From an uncultured archaeon (GTDB taxonomy: Archaea; Asgardarchaeota; Heimdallarchaeia; Heimdallarchaeales; Kariarchaeaceae), in assembly GCA_964645535.1 (NCBI GenBank), contig CAZYCQ010000043.1, positions 9,964-29,657 of the forward strand: a stretch of 19,694 nucleotides of DNA, written 5' to 3'. Below the pieces are notes generated by a model. That model worked only from the letters and a program-made list of their open reading frames with translations, was not told the origin of the DNA and did not search any database. This document shows, piece by piece, positions 2,031-18,563 of this stretch (position 1 is the first letter of the stretch; each line of letters opens with the position of its first letter). The position numbers and the translations under genes are program-made.

Positions 2031-3752
2031 ATGGAAAATGATTTGATTGCTCCTCATGGTGGAGTATTGGTAGATCGCAGGATCTATGGAGAGGAAGGGC
2101 AAAGGTTGCTTGAAAAAGGCCAGTCACTTCCCCAAATCGTTCTTACTCCCCGATCGTTGGCGGATCTGGAATGCATCGCCACAGGTGTCTATTCTCCTCT
2201 TACTGGCTTCATGACCCAAGAAGATTACGAAAGTGTAGTCGAGACCATGCGGTTGGCTAACGGTCTGGTCTGGTCCGTTCCGGTCACCCTGCCTGTTGAC
2301 CGCAAGACCGCGGAACCCCTTTCCGTAGGGGATGAGGTGGCTTTGGTCTGGGAGGATCAGGTTCTGGCCATCATGGAAATCAGTGACAAATACGTCCCTG
2401 ACAAGGCAAATGAGGCGGAAAAGGTATACCTGACGACAAACGAGGCCCATCCCGGAGTGGCGGCTCTCATGAACTCAGGGGATGTCTATTTGGGAGGGGA
2501 GATCTGGCTTTTCTCTGACATTCCCCACAAAAAGTTCCTTGGAGAACGCCTGACGCCCCACCAGACCCGTGCCGAATTCCGCAAGAGGGGGTGGAAGACG
2601 GTGGTGGCCTTCCAGACCCGCAATCCGATTCACCGTGCCCATGAGTACATCCAGAAAGTGGCTTTGGAAATTGTTGACGGGCTTTTCCTGAACCCATTGG
2701 TGGGTGAGACCAAGAGTGACGACATTCCTGCCGATGTCAGAATGAAGGCGTACAAGACAATTCTGGAGAAATACTATCCTCAGGATCGAGTGCTGCTGGG
2801 GGTTTTTCCTGCGGCGATGCGGTATGCCGGACCCAGAGAGGCCATCATGCACGCCATTGCCCGGAAGAACTATGGCTGCACCCATTTCATCGTAGGCCGT
2901 GACCATGCCGGAGTGGGCAGCTATTATGGGACATATGATGCCCAGAAGATCTTTGACCGGTTTGAGCCAGAAGAAATCGGGATCCAGCCGCTCAAATTCG
3001 AACATGCTTTCTATTGCACCATCTGTGGGCAGATGGCCACTGCCAAAACCTGTCCCCATCCAAAAGACTATCATGTGTTCCTTTCGGGCACAAAAGTCCG
3101 GGCCATGCTTTTTGAGGGGCAACTGCCGCCCGAAGAGTTCACCCGTCCCGAGGTGGCCCAAGTCCTCATGGATTCCATGCAACCCAAGGAGATGGCGGCT
3201 CTGAAAGGTGTGACGGTCTGGTTTACCGGTCTGAGCGGTGCCGGCAAGTCGACCATTGCCAAGAACCTGAGCCGGAAACTGGAGGAGATGGGTATCAAAT
3301 TCGAGATCTTGGATGGGGACATCATCCGGCAGAATCTCACCAAGGGCTTGGGGTTCAGCAAGGAGGATCGTGATGAAAATGTGAGGCGGATCGGTTTTGT
3401 TGCCGGCCTTCTGACCCGGAACAATGTGGTGGTCATCGTTGCCGCCATTTCGCCCTACCGTGAGATCCGCGAAGAGGTGAGGCAAAAGATCGGGAACTTC
3501 GTGGAAGTCTACGTGAATGCTCCCGTGGAGGTATGTGAGCAGAGGGATGTCAAGGGACTTTACAAAAGGGCCCGTGCAGGCGAGATCAAGAACTTTACTG
3601 GTATCGATGATCCCTATGAACCTCCCCTCAACCCTGAAGTGATCTGCTATACCGACAAGGAAACTGTGGAAGAAAGCACCCAGAAGGTTTTGGACAAACT
3701 GATTGAATTGGGATATGTTGGAGCATCAGTTAAGCCGGTTTCTCAAAACTGA
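2031..3752 (+). CDS. sat: Bifunctional sulfate adenylyltransferase / adenylyl-sulfate kinase (Sat-CysC fusion)
   Basis: N-terminal Sat: [53 protein letters not shown]-terminal APS kinase: [12 protein letters not shown] (P-loop), [23 protein letters not shown]. Confidence 0.97.
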
Positions 3753-10134: not shown

Positions 10135-10794
10135 ATGTATATTGAAATACTGTTGATTATAGTTGCCTATTTTCTCGGATCCATTCCCACTTCATATTTA
10201 ATTGGAAAATATAAGTACGGATTTGATATCCGCCAAAGAGGATCTGGGAATGTTGGCGGTGCCAATGCTGCCAGAACAATGGGAATGAAGGTTGGTATTT
10301 TAAGTGGACTTGTGGATATTCTGAAAGGAACTGCTGCCACATTGATTGCAATCTGGTATTCTTCCAATTATCCTGCTGCAACAGGCATCTTTCAAGACCC
10401 AAACGTTTTGGTTGCGGCCTGTAGCTTCATGGCAGTCATTGGTCATTGCTATTCATGGATACTCGGCTTCAAGGGAGGAAAAGGGGGTGCAACCACTGCC
10501 GGTGTTGTTTTGGCGCTGGATTGGGTCACTTTTCTGGTGTTGGTCGGAATCTGGATAATTGTTGTGGGAAGCACGCGTTTTACAAGCCTAGGGAATCTAG
10601 TGGCTGTCTGGGTCATCCCTCCAATGCTCAAACTCCGAGAGAAGGTTTTGTATGAGAAGGTCGCAAGTCCCATCCCCTCTCCTGCCTACCAAATCATGTC
10701 CTTTGCTTTAGTAGTTTTAATTTATTATAGGCATCGAGACAATATCGGACGTCTGTTACAGGGAAATGAAAGAAAATTCGGGCAACGTGAGTAA
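10135..10794 (+). CDS. plsY: Acyl-phosphate:glycerol-3-phosphate acyltransferase PlsY
   Basis: LGSIP, DIRQRGSGNVGGANAAR, DILKG, GH...FKGGKGGAT and RHRDNIGRLLQGNE: all three PlsY motifs, with multiple transmembrane segments. Confidence 0.95.
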   Translation: MYIEILLIIVAYFLGSIPTSYLIGKYKYGFDIRQRGSGNVGGANAARTMGMKVGILSGLVDILKGTAATLIAIWYSSNYPAATGIFQDPNVLVAACSFMAVIGHCYSWILGFKGGKGGATTAGVVLALDWVTFLVLVGIWIIVVGSTRFTSLGNLVAVWVIPPMLKLREKVLYEKVASPIPSPAYQIMSFALVVLIYYRHRDNIGRLLQGNERKFGQRE

Positions 10795-10796
10795 AT

Positions 10797-11978
10797 TCAG
10801 GTGTTATGAAGGTCGGCAAGTTGCTCAATTTTCTCTTCCAAAGATTCTACTTTTTCGATGTTCAGCTCAACAGCCTCATCCTCCAAATCCAACTCAGCAA
10901 GGATCTCTGCTTTCCGTGAATCTCTGGCAATCTTGAATGCTTGGATCAATCTCGGATAAACTTCAACCCCTGAGACAATTGCATTCAGGGATGGTTCTGC
11001 AACACCCAAATCATTTTTCAACTCATCGCCGGTCTTTATGAGTTTCAAAAATGGTGAATTCTCAAACGATTGAAGAAATCGAGGTGCCTCATAACTCAAA
11101 TCGATGGTTTCATAGGATCTTCGCATTATTGCACAATACACCTTTCTGGAATCCAAAACCTCATCTCTCGTCATTGCAGTTCTTCCGATCACCTGATCCA
11201 CTAAGATATCCACATATCGCAAGTTTCCTTCTCCTCCTTCCTTAATTAGATCTTCAAAAGGCACATGGATAAGAAATGAAAGACCGGGATTGTATAGGGT
11301 ATCATAAAGGTCATCATATCCTGCATCATAATTTTCCCTATAGGGATCATAGAATGAGGAAATCAAGAGATTGGTCACACCTCGATTGACATAGTCTATC
11401 TTTCCCTTGGCAATCCGTTCAAACGGCCAAGCATTTTCTTCAAGGATGGGGTCATTGTCGACAATCAGAATGTTATTTCCCAAAGGGTCTTCTGAAAAGA
11501 CTGTTTTGTAAAGAAACTGGGCAGTATTGTAATGTACCCTCGAATTCTCGAATCTATCTGGAAATACGAAAATTACTGGTGGTGAATATCTGTAACTGTT
11601 TTTCAATATTTCTGACACCGTAAGTATGCTACTTACTCCAGTAGCACCTGCACCCGTAATGAGAAACATAATCCCTGGGTTTTTTGGGATCATCTTCCCT
11701 ATAAGCGGTCTTATTTTATCTTTCCAGTTTTTTACATTCTCCAAGGCGATTTCAAGATTCCTCGCAAAGCCTTCAATTTCATCAGAAATGGAAAAGACTT
11801 GGTCGTATATCTTATCGGTTTCGTGGTGACGTTTCCCAGAATTCAGTGCCAAACTTTTGATATTGTCAATTCCCCCCGCCTTCAGAGTTTCGATTAGTTT
11901 CGCTCCCATGGATTGACCGATATCTCCTGCGGCAATGATCGATACATTGATTTGTTTTTTAAATAGTCTGAACCTCAT
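10797..11978 (-). CDS. Divergent tubulin/FtsZ-superfamily protein (paralogue B, degenerate motifs)
   Basis: IIAAGDIGQSMG (T1), ALNS (T2), GAGATGVS (degenerate GGGTG[S/T]G), FPDRFENSR (T5), IVDND (T6). ATG 11978 is preceded by GGTGAG, which overlaps the upstream stop; collinear with paralogue A. Confidence 0.8.
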   Translation of the reverse strand: MRFRLFKKQINVSIIAAGDIGQSMGAKLIETLKAGGIDNIKSLALNSGKRHHETDKIYDQVFSISDEIEGFARNLEIALENVKNWKDKIRPLIGKMIPKNPGIMFLITGAGATGVSSILTVSEILKNSYRYSPPVIFVFPDRFENSRVHYNTAQFLYKTVFSEDPLGNNILIVDNDPILEENAWPFERIAKGKIDYVNRGVTNLLISSFYDPYRENYDAGYDDLYDTLYNPGLSFLIHVPFEDLIKEGGEGNLRYVDILVDQVIGRTAMTRDEVLDSRKVYCAIMRRSYETIDLSYEAPRFLQSFENSPFLKLIKTGDELKNDLGVAEPSLNAIVSGVEVYPRLIQAFKIARDSRKAEILAELDLEDEAVELNIEKVESLEEKIEQLADLHNT

Positions 11979-11982
11979 GTTC

Positions 11983-13377
11983 TCACCCAATAAGCTTAAT
12001 GATTGCAGGAATTCCCCGGAAAACATATGCCGAAAATAGCAATGAGAAATAAAGCAATCTAAAAGGATTGACAGGGCTTGGTCTCATGCTATAGATGAAT
12101 TCACGTAGAATAAAGATTACCTGCAAATCGATTTCTGTTCTTTTTGGTCTTCCCAAAGCCAAATTCGTTATTTCTTCATAAATGAATGGATCCAATTCCT
12201 TCAAGGCTTTGGTTCTGAACCTTCCCATCACATTTGAAATGGAGATGATAGGGAGCAGAATTTGGCTGAATGAAAGGATGAGGGATAGCAGAAGAGCCAC
12301 CATTACGATATTTCTTATGATTGTGCTTTTTGCATTGATTTCCGCTGAGCTGGCAAGTCCCAATCCAATGCTTCTTTCCTCTTGAGTCAAAGCATCTAAC
12401 GAAGCGGCACCCTTATCTGCCAAATAGGTTGAAAGTGTTGAATTGAAGCTTGATTGACCTGCCTGTTCAACAATTGAGATGAAAAATGGAGATGAAACAA
12501 GGAATACCAGTGAATTGAGGATGATGGTTGCAGCCAATAATCCGTATAGTGGGATGTTTCCCAAAGATTGTATTGACAATCCTGGAGTATCTGCCAATAC
12601 TTTGACAACTTCATAGTTGTTTTTTGAAAGAATACTGTCATGACCTTCATTATATCCTTCCGCTCGTTCTTTGATGGTTTTCAACAACCTGTCATAAAGC
12701 TTGGAGTTGATACGGACAAAATTCAATCCAACTAAAGATACATAGAGTATCAAAGCTATTCCAAAGTGGCCAATCATGAGAAATATGCTTCTAATCACCA
12801 TTCCAACAAGAGTTCTTCCATGAGACAACCAAATTTCAAAGAGTTGAACATCTAAAATAAAGGGTACTATGAAAGAAACATAGAGTGGTATTTTTGGCCA
12901 GCGACGATAATATGATATCTTGAATTCTCGCTCGATTGATTTTTCAAGCCATGGTGCACGTTTTGCCTCTAAAAGATCCGTAAAGGTTCCATATCCATAT
13001 TTCATGTACAATGGTGTGACCAGTATTCCTGTTAGGGCTAATATTGCAAAAAAGATAGAAATTCCCAAGGATTCCAATAAAATTCCCGCTTCAATGGAGA
13101 GGATTAACGCAGGCATGGCTAAAAAAAGCGGAATCAGAAATAGTTTTCTGAACACTCCAGTGTCCAAATAGAGCACTACATTCATTGGAAGTTTCGAAAT
13201 AATTTTTGGAAGCTGAAAGATATTTTTGAATGGTTTTTCCAATTTCTTGATGAGGGTGAAATATTCCGAATCAATCCCTTCCGGAAGATTTTCCTCATAT
13301 TTTGTCAAAAACTCCTCAAATACACAGGAAATGTCTTTTGGAGATCTAGGTCTTGACGAGATGGTTTCTGTTGTCAT
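11983..13377 (-). CDS. Polytopic membrane protein of unknown function (about 7 TM segments)
   Basis: About seven hydrophobic stretches, e.g. LGISIFFAILALTGILVTPLYM, IPLYGLLAATIILNSLVFLVSSPFFISIV, IVMVALLLSLILSFSQILLPIISI. ATG 13377 overlaps the upstream TGA (TGATG) with GGTGA upstream. Confidence 0.85.
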   Translation of the reverse strand: MTTETISSRPRSPKDISCVFEEFLTKYEENLPEGIDSEYFTLIKKLEKPFKNIFQLPKIISKLPMNVVLYLDTGVFRKLFLIPLFLAMPALILSIEAGILLESLGISIFFAILALTGILVTPLYMKYGYGTFTDLLEAKRAPWLEKSIEREFKISYYRRWPKIPLYVSFIVPFILDVQLFEIWLSHGRTLVGMVIRSIFLMIGHFGIALILYVSLVGLNFVRINSKLYDRLLKTIKERAEGYNEGHDSILSKNNYEVVKVLADTPGLSIQSLGNIPLYGLLAATIILNSLVFLVSSPFFISIVEQAGQSSFNSTLSTYLADKGAASLDALTQEERSIGLGLASSAEINAKSTIIRNIVMVALLLSLILSFSQILLPIISISNVMGRFRTKALKELDPFIYEEITNLALGRPKRTEIDLQVIFILREFIYSMRPSPVNPFRLLYFSLLFSAYVFRGIPAIIKLIG

Positions 13378-14738
13378 CAATGATCACCTTCTATCTCTCC
13401 TCTTCGGATCTTGGTCGCTTCTCTTGCCAATTCTTCCGCTATTTCCTTTGGCGCTTTGACTTCGATTTCTTCGTCCTTGTTGAGCTTGTCAATTTTAGGA
13501 TTAACCTTCCCGAAATCAGAATTATTTATTTCCTCATTCAGAATGTATACCCTGACATCTTCTGCTGCACGCATAAACTCCTTCAATTTATCTGGTACAG
13601 GGTTGCCAACGAAAAACGCTCGGAAGTGGAGACCAGCATCCTTAGAAACCTTGTATTCATGAAAGAAGTCTTTGTTGCTGAATTGAAGGAAAAGATTTCG
13701 GTACGAAGACGCTGTTATCTTCCCTTTTCCTGCTTGAATGAATATATATCCTCTTGTAGCATTGGAAGGTACCAATGGATACCCCAATGATTTCTTTATG
13801 GAACCGTCATAAAGGTCAACCAGATCTTCGGGCGTCTCTTCTTTGTCAAAAGATGCAAGAGTGGCTATTCCTTTTGGACCTCTGAATATTTCAATAAACT
13901 CATTCAGGTCGCTTGAATATCCATCACTCTCTACTTCGGTTATTGTAATCAAATCTGCCAAAACGGCCCCAATTCGTTCATTTATGGCTCCAAATATTTT
14001 TTCTGGTTTGTATTTTGAATTGTTTTCAAAAAATTCATCATTGTCAATCAACACTGTTACCAAATTCTTTGATCTGGATCCTGGTGCATAAGTAAAATGA
14101 TAGAGAGCCGCTGCTGCAATGAATTTCGTCCGTGTGTTTTCCAAACTAGATGGAAGAACCAATATGGGGACTGGACGGAGACCCTTGGAAATTAGAAAAT
14201 CTGCCAATTCTAAACTTACTCCTACACCAGTTCCTCCAGCACCTAAGATTAGGAAAACAAGGTTATGATTTGATTTTTTATGAAATTCATTTAGATATGT
14301 TTCAACAAATGCTTCAATCTTTTCTTTGTCTTTTTTGTAAATGGTTGCGCCCTTTCTGAACTGTTTTGCCGTTCCATATGGGGTGTCTCCAATATGAAGC
14401 TTGCGTGTTACCTCAATTTTTGAAAGAACGTCCTTATCGGTCTCTATGGTTGCTAAGTCATAATTGATACCGTATTGAAGAAATCGTTTCCGCAATTGTT
14501 CCACTATTCGTGCACCTGCACCACCAATCCCTATAATCGGAATTTCTGGAATTTCCCTCACTGAGGGTATATCCAACAGAGGCGTTTCTTCTATACCTGT
14601 ATCATCAACTAACACTGTCTCAGGAATCTCTTCTCCTTTGGACTTAGTGGTCGGTTTTCCTAATGCTGTTTCTAAATTGAGGAATGTAACATCTGCTCTG
14701 ATGCGGTCATCCGATCCAAAGGGCCAAAGTCTAACCAT
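13377..14738 (-). CDS. Divergent tubulin/FtsZ-superfamily GTPase (paralogue A)
   Basis: IIGIGGAGARI (T1), IETD (T2), LGAGGTGVG (T4 signature), LPSSLENTR (T5), LIDND (T6), INERI (H7), SSDLNEF (T7). About 60-aa N-terminal extension. Confidence 0.9.
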   Translation of the reverse strand: MVRLWPFGSDDRIRADVTFLNLETALGKPTTKSKGEEIPETVLVDDTGIEETPLLDIPSVREIPEIPIIGIGGAGARIVEQLRKRFLQYGINYDLATIETDKDVLSKIEVTRKLHIGDTPYGTAKQFRKGATIYKKDKEKIEAFVETYLNEFHKKSNHNLVFLILGAGGTGVGVSLELADFLISKGLRPVPILVLPSSLENTRTKFIAAAALYHFTYAPGSRSKNLVTVLIDNDEFFENNSKYKPEKIFGAINERIGAVLADLITITEVESDGYSSDLNEFIEIFRGPKGIATLASFDKEETPEDLVDLYDGSIKKSLGYPLVPSNATRGYIFIQAGKGKITASSYRNLFLQFSNKDFFHEYKVSKDAGLHFRAFFVGNPVPDKLKEFMRAAEDVRVYILNEEINNSDFGKVNPKIDKLNKDEEIEVKAPKEIAEELAREATKIRRGEIEGDH

Positions 14739-14761: not shown

Positions 14762-14780
14762 CTTTTTTATTAAGCCTTTA
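14762..14780 (-). promoter_or_regulatory. TATA/BRE-like promoter of the tubulin-like operon
   Basis: The minus strand reads TAAAGGCTTAATAAAAAAG, placing TTAATAAA about 28-35 nt upstream of ATG 14738. Confidence 0.5.
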
Positions 14781-14976
14781 TGTTCAACGATTTAACTTTC
14801 CCACCAAATCTGCACTAGATTGACCTGAGGACATCAAATGAATTCTGCTATAATTCCTTTACAGATACCTCTTCAAAACCGATTCGTCATCTGACCTATT
14901 TGGGGAGAATATTGATATCTTCTTCCACCTACATTTCAAACCAATTAAATTCTATTGTCTCCTAGATCCATTGCAA

Positions 14977-16440
14977 ATGGGTGAATATATTAAAGCCGGT
15001 ATCATAGGAACAATTGGACCATCCTCTGCAAACGAAGAAACCTTGAAGGAAATGTTTACCAAGGGATTGAACATTGTCAGAATCAATCTATCTCACGGTT
15101 CAATTGATCAGGCAAAGAAAAATTTTGATCTTGTCCGAACCGTAAATGATACTATTGGAATACTTCTTGATTTGTCTGGTCCCAAGATGAGAATTGGGGC
15201 AATCAATGGGCATGTTCATCTGAAACAAGGTCAAGAATTTCGTATTACAAAGGAAGACGTTCAAGGTGATGAACATAGGGTCGGAACAAATTATCCGGAA
15301 TTGATAGACCTTGTCAAACCCGGAAATACCCTTTACCTTAATGATGGACTCATAGAACTTGTTGTGAAGGAAAAGACAGAAACTGACGTCATTTGTGAAG
15401 TGGTTCGAGGGGGTATACTAAGCTCTCGAAAAGGAATTAATGCTCCAGGTGTTCCCATTGGACTCTTTTCCCCCACTGCCAAAGATGTGAGAGATTTAGA
15501 GGCCACCATATCACTTGAACCCGATTTTTATGGTGTTTCATTTGTCAGACGTCCTGAAGATCTGATCCGGGTCAAGGAGATCATAGCAACCCACACTAAG
15601 GATGAAATTCATTTGGTGAGCAAAATCGAACATCAGGATGCATTGAAAAACTTTGATGAAATTCTCAAAGAAAGCAATGAAATCATGGTTGCAAGAGGCG
15701 ACCTAGGTGTGGAGATGAACCCTGCAGAAGTCCCTTTGGTTCAGAAAGAATTGATCAAAAAATGCAATAGGCTTGGAAAACCTGCAATAGTTGCTACACA
15801 AATGCTTGAATCCATGGTTGTCTCACCAAGACCAACTCGTGCTGAAGCCTCTGATGTGGCAAACGCTATTTTGGATGGGGCAGATGTCGTGATGTTGAGT
15901 GCAGAAACCGCCACCGGCGATTATCCTGTTAAAGCGGTTGAAACCATGAGGGACATAATTCTCAAGGTTCAGAATACCATTGTTCCACATAAACAAAAAT
16001 ACCTCCCCAAAGAAAATCCCAACTGGGATGCTGTCGGCAGGGCAGCTGTCTATCTTGCCGAAGATCTGGATGCCTCTGCTATTCTTGCAAATACTCGTTC
16101 TGGTGACACTAGCAGGGTGATTGCCAAATATCGTCCAAACCAGCCCATTATTTCTATCACTCCCAATAGGAAAACATTTCGCAGATTGAATATGCAATGG
16201 GGAGTCATACCCATCTATAGCAACAAAACTTACCATGATACGGACGATATGATTGAAGAATCAATACGGATTTGTCTTGAAAAAGGTCTGATCACAAAAG
16301 ATGACTTGATTGTGACTGTTGCAGGTTCATTATTGGGTCTTCCCTATACTACCAATCTCATCCAATACTATTTTGTGAAAGATATCGTGAAATCATTGGA
16401 AGCAAAAGCCAAATTCGCAAAAAATTATCTCTCAGAATGA
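14977..16440 (+). CDS. pyk: Pyruvate kinase
   Basis: TIGPS, RINLSHG, DLSGPKMR, KIE, MVARGDLGVE, ATQMLESM, PTRAE..DVANAILDG.D..MLSAETA.G.YP. ATG 14977 preferred over TTG 14971. Confidence 0.98.
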   Translation: MGEYIKAGIIGTIGPSSANEETLKEMFTKGLNIVRINLSHGSIDQAKKNFDLVRTVNDTIGILLDLSGPKMRIGAINGHVHLKQGQEFRITKEDVQGDEHRVGTNYPELIDLVKPGNTLYLNDGLIELVVKEKTETDVICEVVRGGILSSRKGINAPGVPIGLFSPTAKDVRDLEATISLEPDFYGVSFVRRPEDLIRVKEIIATHTKDEIHLVSKIEHQDALKNFDEILKESNEIMVARGDLGVEMNPAEVPLVQKELIKKCNRLGKPAIVATQMLESMVVSPRPTRAEASDVANAILDGADVVMLSAETATGDYPVKAVETMRDIILKVQNTIVPHKQKYLPKENPNWDAVGRAAVYLAEDLDASAILANTRSGDTSRVIAKYRPNQPIISITPNRKTFRRLNMQWGVIPIYSNKTYHDTDDMIEESIRICLEKGLITKDDLIVTVAGSLLGLPYTTNLIQYYFVKDIVKSLEAKAKFAKNYLSE

Positions 16441-16547
16441 AAGAGGATATTTGAAGAGGTAAGGACTTGTCAACTTTTCCTCAACGAGGCAAATACTATT
16501 AATATTTGTTTCATGAAAGTAAGGTAACAATATTTAGAGGAATCACC

Positions 16548-18563
16548 ATGAGTTTTGACAGAAGGGATCTTTTCGGCGAATTGGCAAACAAGATCGGGGC
16601 GGAAGATATCACTGACCCATTTGAATTGCTAAAAAAAGGAGATGAAGAGGCACAGAAAGGAAATCATGGAAAAGCCAAAGAATTCTATGAAAAAGCCATA
16701 GCTACTGGAAAAGCAAAGGCACAACGGTTCGAAACAAATAACCAGCATCGTTCAGCAGCTGAAATGAATTATGTCCAAGCTCTCGCCAATCTCCGATTAA
16801 ACAATACCGAGGCGGCTATGGCCTTGTATTCAAAGATAGGTACTCAATTGATTCAAGGAGGAAAGAATTACATCGACCTTTACAAAGAATATGAGGATGG
16901 AGTTTTGCTTATCACCCTAGGGGGATTGGTCTATGTACTTCAAGATCGAGTTGCAGAGGCAAAAGAGCTCTATCTTCAAATGATAAATGAAGTTGAACAG
17001 AAAGGCCAGACTGGGGAGATCCAACAAGGTCTTGACCGTTTGAAAGAGATTCTCTGGACTGTTGGATACATTATCAAAGCTATTCAAGATGTCGATCATT
17101 CTGCTCTTCAGAGTGCACAACAACTCATTTCAAAGACTATCCGCCCCAACCTCAAGAAAGCAAAAGTTGCAGGGATGGAACCATTACTAAATGAGATTGT
17201 TTCCTATACCTTGAATTACTTCCAAAGCCAAATCAAATTGCCAAAAATTTCGCTAAGTACTATCATCCCTCCTGAAATGCTTGTCAATTCTATTTTTGAG
17301 GTTCAATTGTCAGCAGTCAACGAGGGTGAGGGTGAAGCTCACTCAATTACCCTTGAATTTGAAATTCCTTCGGATCTTGAACTTGTTGATGGAGCCGCAT
17401 CTGCCACATTTGATAGGCTTTCCAGCGGTGAAAAAATCGAACATAAATTATCCTTGAGATACCAGACAAGTTTGGAAGAAGATCGAACCTTTGACCTTAA
17501 AGCCAAACTTTCGTATAAGGACATGCTCAATAATGAACAGGTTCAGTTTGTTGGTCCAATTTCTCTAGAGGTAACTGCCAAAAGCAAGAAAGACGAATAC
17601 ATGGCTCTATTAACCTCTCTCAAAGAAAAATGGGATGGTATCAAAGAACTTGGTTTTGATGAACTTATTCCTGATGCATTGATTTCAACTGTGGAAACTT
17701 TGATTTCCCAGAAAAGCTCCGATATTGAACAGCTCATTGAAGAGCAGCAATATGTTCAGGCAGATCAAGCTTTGAAAGACCTTGAAACAACCATCAAATG
17801 GTCTGAAGAGGCATTGAGGACTGGAGAAAGCTTTAAGGAACTCCGTGATGCCATTGAAAAATTGAGAAATGAATACGCGGAGACAAAACTTTCTGAAGCA
17901 GAAGAAAAACACAAACAAGAAATTGAAGAAACTATTGATAGGATAAATAAGATAAAAGAAGAGGAAAGGATTCAAGCTCTTCAAGAAAAAGAAGCCGAAT
18001 TGAACAAAAAGTGGGAAAATGAAATTGCCAATTTGAAGAAAAAGCATGAAGATGAAATAAACAACCTAAAGGCCGAACATGAAAAGACCCTGAAACTTAA
18101 ACTTACTGAACTCGAGGAAGCTCTGACAACTCAACATAGACAGCAATTAGATGAGCTTAATACAAAGAATGAACGTGGCATCCGAGAAATACAGGCTGAA
18201 TACCAAGCGGATTTGGAAAAGAAAGTAGAAGAGGCTAGGCAAAATGAAGCTGCCAAATATGAAAAAATGATTGAAGATTTGAAACAAGCCCATGAAGAGG
18301 AATTGCGACAGATCACTGAAAGATTAGAGGAAGAGAAGCAAAACGAGATCCAAAGCTTAGAAGCAAAATTTGAAGTGGAAAAAGAAAACCTACGTCAGCA
18401 ATTGAGAAATGAATTTGAAGAGGAAAAGGCACAGGCCATACAAAAAGCGATAGATGAATTTTCAGAAACGCAACAGCGAAACTTCCAAGCCAAAGAAAGA
18501 GAATATCTTGAAAAAATTGAGGAATTGAACCGTACTATTGCACGACTAGAAAGCCGAGAATAA
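16548..18563 (+). CDS. Large cytoplasmic protein: TPR/SNAP-like helical N-terminus, Ig-like (CARDB/BatD-like) middle domain, long coiled-coil C-terminus
   Basis: KGDEEAQKGNHGKAKEFYEKAI and YVQALANLRLNNTEAAMALY are TPR-like. FEVQLSAVNEGEGEAHSITLEFEIPSDLELVDG...LSSGEK...LSYKD is Ig-like. The last ~250 aa are E/K/Q-rich. No signal peptide or convincing TM. ATG 16548 is preceded by GAGG. Confidence 0.8.
   Translation: MSFDRRDLFGELANKIGAEDITDPFELLKKGDEEAQKGNHGKAKEFYEKAIATGKAKAQRFETNNQHRSAAEMNYVQALANLRLNNTEAAMALYSKIGTQLIQGGKNYIDLYKEYEDGVLLITLGGLVYVLQDRVAEAKELYLQMINEVEQKGQTGEIQQGLDRLKEILWTVGYIIKAIQDVDHSALQSAQQLISKTIRPNLKKAKVAGMEPLLNEIVSYTLNYFQSQIKLPKISLSTIIPPEMLVNSIFEVQLSAVNEGEGEAHSITLEFEIPSDLELVDGAASATFDRLSSGEKIEHKLSLRYQTSLEEDRTFDLKAKLSYKDMLNNEQVQFVGPISLEVTAKSKKDEYMALLTSLKEKWDGIKELGFDELIPDALISTVETLISQKSSDIEQLIEEQQYVQADQALKDLETTIKWSEEALRTGESFKELRDAIEKLRNEYAETKLSEAEEKHKQEIEETIDRINKIKEEERIQALQEKEAELNKKWENEIANLKKKHEDEINNLKAEHEKTLKLKLTELEEALTTQHRQQLDELNTKNERGIREIQAEYQADLEKKVEEARQNEAAKYEKMIEDLKQAHEEELRQITERLEEEKQNEIQSLEAKFEVEKENLRQQLRNEFEEEKAQAIQKAIDEFSETQQRNFQAKEREYLEKIEELNRTIARLESRE
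18006..18071 (+). repeat. Degenerate 33-nt (11-aa) tandem repeat within the coiled coil
   Basis: aaaaagtgggaaaatgaaattgccaatttgaag / aaaaagcatgaagatgaaataaacaacctaaag encode KKWENEIANLK / KKHEDEINNLK. Confidence 0.65.

Follow-up and report, generated by a model that had tools for sequence, protein, structure and literature searches.

An order of Asgard archaea, the Heimdallarchaeales, carries a gene trio in which two divergent paralogues of the tubulin/FtsZ superfamily (here A and B) are locked to a gene for a predicted seven-transmembrane (7-TM) protein (M) with the modelled fold of the 7TMIC channels, the superfamily of the insect chemoreceptors. We describe the trio from 19,694 nucleotides of an uncultured archaeon of the family Kariarchaeaceae (assembly GCA_964645535.1, contig CAZYCQ010000043.1, positions 9,964 to 29,657), a stretch that is called the window throughout and in whose coordinates all positions are given. 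Asgard archaea are close relatives of eukaryotes. Both the filaments of the tubulin superfamily and the 7TMIC channels have central roles in eukaryotic cells, and the prokaryotic origins of both are obscure. The interest of the locus is therefore that an order near the eukaryotic stem encodes an apparently undescribed tubulin-like paralogue pair that is genomically tied to a 7TMIC-fold protein. With moderate confidence we favour the view that the three proteins constitute a dedicated membrane-associated module, in which the cytoplasmic domain of M would serve as the docking site for a CetZ/TubZ-like heteromer of A and B. The features of the locus are as follows, the last three having been read directly from the letters.

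13377..14738, minus strand: gene A, 453 amino acids, predicted divergent GTPase of the tubulin/FtsZ superfamily
11983..13377, minus strand: gene M, 464 amino acids, predicted 7-TM membrane protein, N-in/C-out, with a 7TMIC-like modelled fold
10797..11978, minus strand: gene B, 393 amino acids, paralogue of A with a modelled two-domain tubulin/FtsZ fold
13375..13391, minus strand: A/M junction, TGATG stop/start overlap with a GGTGA Shine-Dalgarno-like motif ahead of it
11976..11988, minus strand: M/B junction, TGA, 4-nucleotide gap and ATG, with GGTGA overlapping the stop codon of M
14763..14773, minus strand: candidate archaeal promoter, an AT-rich TATA-like element upstream of A

Gene structure, paralogy and folds of A and B

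The open reading frames of A, M and B are all intact and together fill positions 10797-14738 of the minus strand. The junctions are as an earlier note on this DNA, made from the letters alone, had described them. The stop codon of A (TGA, 13379-13377) overlaps the ATG of M (13377-13375), the stop codon of M (TGA, 11985-11983) is separated by 4 nucleotides from the ATG of B (11978-11976), and both internal starts are preceded by GGTGA at a distance of 7-11 nucleotides. The start of M was placed at the ATG at 13377 (464 amino acids) rather than at the TTG at 13380, and that of B at 11978 (393 amino acids), as in public gene sets, rather than at the first ATG of its reading frame at 12026. The spacing between M and B is likewise tight in relatives (-1 to 11 nucleotides). 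Roughly 25-35 nucleotides upstream of the ATG of A lies the AT-rich element TTAATAAAAAA (14773-14763), a putative TATA box. With this arrangement A, M and B would share one transcript and be co-produced through translational coupling.

The two outer genes are paralogues. BLASTP aligns A and B with an E-value of 3e-10 over 127 amino acids, and alignment of the two family profiles with hhalign gives a probability of 99.8 and an E-value of 1.3e-27 over 363 columns, including the C-terminal helix that had been noticed as shared. Judged from these alignments, the paralogy is full-length and far beyond chance, and the motif pairs quoted in the earlier note are all present.

Assignment of the pair to a family is less direct. 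A scores 35.5 bits against Pfam PF00091, narrowly above the cut-off of 33, and 40.8 bits against the FtsZ equivalog model TIGR00065, for which the cut-off is 295.2. B alone gave no match in Pfam, in NCBIfam (including TIGR00065) or in single-sequence searches of the PDB. Across the A/B family PF00091 matches 26 of 36 members (best E-value 8.6e-13), the B of the window not being among them on its own, and none of the 36 matches FtsZ_C, CetZ_C (PF21011), TubZ_C or TubZ-like_C. The A-family profile matches Methanocaldococcus jannaschii FtsZ (8.7e-11, N-domain only), RepX (1.5e-8) and the CetZ structure 3zid (1.6e-8, residues 66-345). The B-family profile matches Bacillus RepX/TubZ (4ei7, E-value 3e-12) in an alignment that takes in both domains and the long C-terminal helix, and also CetZ2 (1.3e-3). 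In the public genome of Heimdall LC_2 the copies of A and B carry the automatic name 'Tubulin-like protein CetZ', and M is called 'hypothetical'. Profiles and structural models together place A and B in the tubulin/FtsZ superfamily, with CetZ and TubZ as its most similar members, yet by curated models they fall outside FtsZ, CetZ and TubZ, since not one of the 36 members matches the C-terminal models of these families.

The nucleotide-binding motifs of the two paralogues compare as follows.

T1: GIGGAG in A; AAGDxGxxhG in B (AAGDIG in the window)
T4: GAGGTGVG in A; GAGATGVS in B
T5: PxxxENxR in A; PxxFENSR in B (PDRFENSR in the window), FtsZ-like in both
T7/H8 acidic residue, kept in both: E280 (SSDLNEF) in A; D223 (DDLYD) in B

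The T4 loops of A and B deviate from GGGTG[ST]G yet stay glycine-rich, and GTP binding and hydrolysis are putative for both. The earlier note had taken the signatures to be divergent, which is correct for T4. The T1 motif of B, however, resembles the AGQCGNQIG of tubulin and on this comparison belongs to the tubulin/CetZ type and is not just a degenerate motif. A has an N-terminal extension of about 60 amino acids and a conserved C-terminal tail (NPKIDKL..EEIEVK). The N-termini of 31 of 33 family members are net positive, with that of B reading MRFRLFKKQ and the A of the window being an exception.

For B, the fold was derived from the family profile and an AlphaFold2 model built on a 36-sequence alignment (pLDDT 83.8, pTM 0.83), which shows the full two-domain fold with a Rossmann-type GTPase domain, H7 and the C-terminal domain. 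Foldseek places this model closest to TubZ-Bc/RepX (E-value 1.6e-16, TM-score 0.67-0.69). A ranking by structural match score is led by CetZ2 (31.2; root-mean-square deviation 2.9, 315 aligned), followed by the CetZ of M. thermophila (29.9), CetZ1 (29.7), TubZ-Bc (29.0) and the tubulins and BtubA (about 27-28), and FtsZ chains are absent from the 50 matches listed. For A, the fold is based on family profiles and on the ESM Atlas's own model, which has TM-scores of 0.64-0.67 to viral TubZ-like clusters and of 0.65/0.80 to a CetZ cluster. The modelled fold of B is thus closest to CetZ and TubZ/RepX. The proposal that the pair represents a distinct family of the superfamily therefore stands as far as curated models go, but the folds resemble those of CetZ and TubZ/RepX.

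This resemblance raises the question of whether the cassette could belong to an integrated plasmid or virus and serve it as a TubZ-type (type III) DNA-segregation module, given that RepX/TubZ is the best profile match of B and that most neighbours of A in the Atlas are viral clusters of TubZ-like proteins. We give this explanation hardly any credence. In different families the cassette sits at the same place in the chromosome, next to pyruvate kinase and PlsY, it contains no TubR-like or other small DNA-binding gene, and its base composition is host-like, resembling the rest of the contig. Searches of A, M and B against PHROGs and PADLOC gave no match, nor did tblastn of A against 72,556 plasmids, and TubZ_C and TubZ-like_C are missing from all 36 family members.

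Topology and fold of the membrane protein M

The middle gene had been described as encoding a partner with about seven membrane spans, and family-averaged hydropathy of M indeed shows seven hydrophobic segments. Lysine and arginine are distributed very unevenly between the loops, with 35 in the odd and 4 in the even ones, and conservation follows the same division (0.52-0.77 in odd against 0.25-0.35 in even loops). Since positive charge and conservation coincide in the odd loops, these loops and the N-terminus are placed in the cytoplasm. M is accordingly predicted to be N-in/C-out with conserved cytoplasmic loops at residues 129-162, 223-271 and 381-440. The published definition of 7TMICs calls for extracellular loops that are shorter than the intracellular ones. 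Two of the outer loops of M, with 3 and 6 amino acids, agree with this; the third has 50 in the M of the window, but its length varies and many homologues have a much shorter one.

No sequence family in Pfam or NCBIfam includes M, and when 1.84 billion representative proteins were searched exhaustively with its profile, only 17 relatives were recovered. The AlphaFold2 model (pLDDT 81.5, pTM 0.77) is all-helical, with very long helices at residues 190-243, 269-321 and 332-407 and a terminal helix that is split at SPVNPF into 415-430 and 438-463. Comparison of this model with the PDB by VIA-align returned 7TMIC channels as all 19 top matches, spanning residues 31/63-464, and below these the Z-score falls to 6.7 or less and alignments become short. 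The link to 7TMICs comes from VIA-align only: Foldseek against the PDB found nothing at E-values up to 1e-3, a shape search of the ESM Atlas yielded only TM-scores below 0.3, and a Pfam scan of all 16 M members at E-values up to 10 detected no 7tm_6, 7tm_7 or DUF3537. Among the features by which Himmel, Moi and Benton define the 7TMIC superfamily (2023, bioRxiv 10.1101/2023.08.30.555482), M shows seven TM segments in the appropriate topology, by prediction, and in the model long TM4-TM6 helices that reach into the cytoplasm together with a split TM7 (7a/7b). Judged by its model, M has the architecture of insect chemoreceptor channels, with 7 TM segments, a cytoplasmic N-terminus, a TM4-TM6 cytoplasmic 'anchor' domain and a divided TM7. 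The same study describes 'Heimdallarchaeota 7TMICs' as the only prokaryotic 7TMICs with eukaryote-like long TM4/TM5 and as the prokaryotic branch nearest to the eukaryotic 7TMICs, and its text does not mention tubulin, FtsZ, operons or genomic context. M-type proteins exist outside the trio too, as indicated by the most distant relative of M (P0080, 459 amino acids, profile E-value 1.5e-15; L025 6001-7380), which lies between a gene for an RsmB-type methyltransferase and nuoA/CTP synthase and has no tubulin-like neighbour.

The fold of M changes the mechanistic picture, which no longer features an anonymous anchor: the earlier note had cast M as a dedicated partner that tethers the filament, and the model gives this partner the fold of a 7TMIC channel. 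In the module that we favour, A and B would come together at the inner face of the membrane in a GTP-dependent manner, as a heterodimer or a heteropolymer. This assembly would dock on the conserved cytoplasmic domain of M, aided by the basic N-terminal peptides, and would either position or cluster M or couple its conformation to nucleotide state.

We modelled a complex of M with B, the universally adjacent pair, which includes the partner without a known sequence family. The median ipSAE was 0.37 (runs 0.30, 0.39 and 0.37), compared with 0.00 for the best of three controls. Neither partner fell below a pLDDT of 72, and 65% or more of the contacts were shared between runs. When the procedure was calibrated, 58 of 80 solved complexes and 2 of 110 mismatched pairs came up to this mark; of those 80, only 7 did so at scores of 0.60 or less, as did both of the mismatches that passed. 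M+B was run on custom alignments, to which these counts apply only roughly. The interaction with the membrane protein that had been anticipated is thus predicted above controls, but at this score it lends weak support to binding of B by M and makes docking only modestly more probable.

The low score also bears on a different division of labour, in which A and B are a CetZ-like cytoskeletal pair that binds the membrane through its own basic N-termini, while M acts in their pathway as a channel or sensor, perhaps signalling to the filament or being regulated by it, and is not its anchor. Basic N-termini in 31 of 33 members, the CetZ-like fold of B, the ligand-gated channel fold of M and the weak M+B prediction all agree with this. 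On the other hand, the cytoplasmic loops are the most conserved parts of M, and the tight coupling of the M and B genes is universal. We regard this arrangement as unlikely, though by no means negligible.

If A, M and B do form a complex, this would be a new kind of membrane attachment for a tubulin-type polymer, through a polytopic channel-like protein and not through SepF or FtsA, and it would provide the first functional handle on prokaryotic 7TMICs. A bolder version of the docked module, which we put forward only tentatively and hold to be rather doubtful, is a cytoskeleton-coupled ion channel, in which the eukaryote-like 7TMIC channel of the Heimdallarchaeales is held in position or gated through physical contact with a heteropolymer of A and B. 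If true, it would set a prokaryotic precedent for coupling between channels and the cytoskeleton in the archaeal lineage nearest to eukaryotes. The three-gene system is small and directly testable by heterologous expression.

Distribution, history and surroundings of the trio

We surveyed 400 Asgard species genomes with profiles of B and M. With the B profile 47 genomes were matched, and with the M profile 46. The families are the same for both profiles and belong to one order, apart from the case given below: the Kariarchaeaceae of the window (11 of 11 genomes), the Heimdallarchaeaceae (30 of 31) and two small families, f2 (1 of 1) and f4 (3 of 3 for B and 2 of 3 for M). The remaining genomes, about 330, contained no match to either profile. 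The A/B and M genes are adjacent wherever contigs allow this to be seen, so that the synteny survey proposed in the earlier note found M perfectly syntenic with A/B and with the same phyletic pattern across the order.

The only cassette outside the order (L021, G061:C52) is on a 4,055-bp contig whose genome belongs to another family and has about 8% contamination. It scores like the Kariarchaeaceae copies (M E-value 1.8e-172), and the contig was probably mis-binned rather than transferred.

The gene order pyruvate kinase-A-M-B-PlsY-RidA is also found in Heimdall LC_2 and in another metagenome-assembled genome. Heimdallarchaeaceae, among them Ca. Heimdallarchaeum endolithica with its closed genome, have a different arrangement: A' lies on the minus strand and is divergent from M and B' on the plus strand, in some cases with pyruvate kinase, likewise on the minus strand, between A' and M. 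The trio thus persists through inversion of A' and a change of flanking genes. This bears on the suggestion that the three genes are neighbours through inherited synteny only and have no joint function, which could draw on the fact that the flanking PlsY and RidA genes are likewise syntenic within Kariarchaeaceae. Flanks differ between families, however, while the trio stays together even with A' inverted, the phyletic patterns of its members are identical, and start and stop codons overlap or nearly do so. Synteny without joint function is therefore very improbable.

In a maximum-likelihood tree of 37 rows the A sequences of Kariarchaeaceae and f4 form one clade with A' of Heimdallarchaeaceae (SH-aLRT 96), and the corresponding B and B' sequences form another (SH-aLRT 87). 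The A/B family as a whole is monophyletic with respect to FtsZ and two TubZ-family references, RepX and a Lysinibacillus homologue (support 97). With FtsZ and these two TubZ-family proteins as its references, the tree resolves the internal history of A and B, and not the place of the family in the superfamily. The two clades indicate that the duplication that gave rise to A and B predates the split of the families.

Since then the paralogues have changed unequally. T4 was lost from A' in three genera of Heimdallarchaeaceae (GNDSFLLG, DNDAFSLG and DNTCFNFG), where B' keeps SGGGTG, and from B in two f4 genomes (SSDGFSTA and SSGTFSSG). In Kariarchaeaceae the motifs are largely intact in both paralogues, and acidic residues at the T7/H8 position are retained in all four groups. 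Loss of T4 is complementary between lineages, as expected if A and B are an obligate pair. If A, M and B form a complex, it would provide a natural case in which one subunit of a tubulin-like pair has become catalytically dead. One might also read the loss of T4 from one partner in Heimdallarchaeaceae and f4, with the T7 acidic residue kept in both, as the mark of a heterodimeric GTPase switch that does not polymerise, in which one active subunit and one pseudo-GTPase gate or regulate M. The near-complete motifs of both paralogues in Kariarchaeaceae, the window included, speak against such a switch, as does retention of the full two-domain fold with CetZ/TubZ-like longitudinal elements; to our knowledge, all characterised members of the superfamily with this fold polymerise. 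We consider a non-polymerising switch distinctly unlikely, and retain the docked A/B assembly as the preferred reading.

Apart from the trio, the window has no division genes, as had been stated; the neighbours are PlsY, RidA, pyruvate kinase and a tRNA-intron endonuclease. The canonical FtsZ of the host (assembly of 3.6 Mb, 89% complete) is encoded separately on another contig, and a PF00091 search of the host genome recovered only this FtsZ and A. SepF (PF04472, E-values up to 0.01) was detected in none of 12 Kariarchaeaceae genomes, which are up to 94% complete and have FtsZ, and was present in 28 of 31 Heimdallarchaeaceae and in 12 of 12 genomes of another family. SepF may have diverged beyond detection in Kariarchaeaceae, or this family may anchor its FtsZ in another way.

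PlsY (10135-10799), of the bacterial type (PF02660, E-value 1e-48), converges on B, with only 2 nucleotides between the stop codons, so that the transcripts must overlap or end inside the neighbouring gene. Its position beside B is kept in LC_2, L004 and L026. On the other side, pyruvate kinase (14971-16440, plus strand) directly adjoins the cassette. It is co-directional upstream of A in the Kariarchaeaceae genomes LC_2 and L004 and inverted in the window, it also adjoins the cassette in family f4 and lies between A' and M in Ca. Heimdallarchaeum, and it is missing from the cassette in genus g12 (L018). Pyruvate kinase can regenerate nucleoside triphosphates, and its position may reflect inherited synteny or a functional link. 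It is followed by a gene for a 685-amino-acid protein without a Pfam family (16506-18563, plus strand), and in LC_2 and L004 the gene at this position encodes a protein of similar size (707 and 660 amino acids, respectively) that also lacks a Pfam family. Elsewhere in the window a Sat-CysC fusion of ATP sulfurylase and adenosine 5'-phosphosulfate kinase (2031-3752, plus strand) lies in a stretch with a GC content of 0.49-0.53, compared with about 0.39 in the rest of the window.

Comparison with known systems

Among characterised relatives, CetZ (4b45, 4b46, 3zid) resembles A and B at the level of profiles only with E-values of 1e-3 to 1e-8, and CetZ_C is found in none of the 36 members. Unlike CetZ, A and B form an obligate paralogue pair around a 7-TM gene within one Asgard order, and their T4 loops read GAGGTG and GAGATG instead of GGGTG. 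TubZ/RepX (4ei7, 2xka) provides the best match of B both by sequence profile and by Foldseek, and TubZ and PhuZ have a conserved C-terminal tail, as does A. The A/B cassette is instead chromosomal and vertically inherited, it lacks TubR, a centromere and a match to TubZ_C, and the TubZ references RepX and the Lysinibacillus homologue fall outside the Heimdall A/B clade (support 97).

FtsZ with SepF, FtsA or ZipA offers a parallel in that a GTPase of the superfamily relies on a dedicated membrane tether, and the PxxxENxR of T5 is FtsZ-like. A, however, scores far below the cut-off of TIGR00065, FtsZ_C is missing and the host has a separate canonical FtsZ. The anchors of FtsZ are peripheral or single-pass proteins, whereas M, the candidate tether, is a predicted polytopic 7-TM protein. 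To the 7TMIC superfamily (insect Or/Gr/Orco) M is likened by its modelled fold and by features of the published definition, and it may be one of the 'Heimdallarchaeota 7TMICs' of that study; it has no sequence match to 7tm_6, 7tm_7 or DUF3537. The published definition also includes a tetrameric cation channel with its pore along TM7b, a state and an activity that are putative for M.

Paired genes are known from BtubAB and from the Asgard AtubAB (PMC13394414), which resemble A and B in being adjacent, translationally coupled paralogues, with the integrity of the nucleotide site differing within the pair in some lineages. AtubAB are true tubulins, and with FtsZ and A as the only PF00091 matches in the host genome we rule out that A and B are AtubAB. 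Divergent FtsZ/tubulin paralogues with a proposed role in membrane remodelling and uncharacterised membrane-associated neighbours have been described as FtsZl1/FtsZl2 (PMC2875224) and 'Asg.Tub' (PMC9871819). In FtsZl1 both T6-H7 and the C-terminal domain are missing, and its linked genes encode vWA, GTPase and OmpA proteins (Makarova and Koonin, 2010, PMC2875224). Identity with FtsZl1 is ruled out by the complete two-domain fold of the B model and by the absence of vWA, GTPase and OmpA neighbours from every locus. The 'Asg.Tub' proteins are OLS26264.1, PWI48967.1, KXH77455.1 and OLS30664.1 (Santana-Molina, 2023, PMC9871819); their accessions and motifs are different, and the LC_2 proteins OLS29073.1 and OLS29071.1 are absent from the dataset of PMC9871819, which excludes this identity as well. 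A literature search by accession (OLS29071-73, UJG43236/39) returned no paper. Both components come from known superfamilies, and their combination, paired tubulin-like paralogues with a 7TMIC-fold gene conserved throughout the order, appears to be undescribed.

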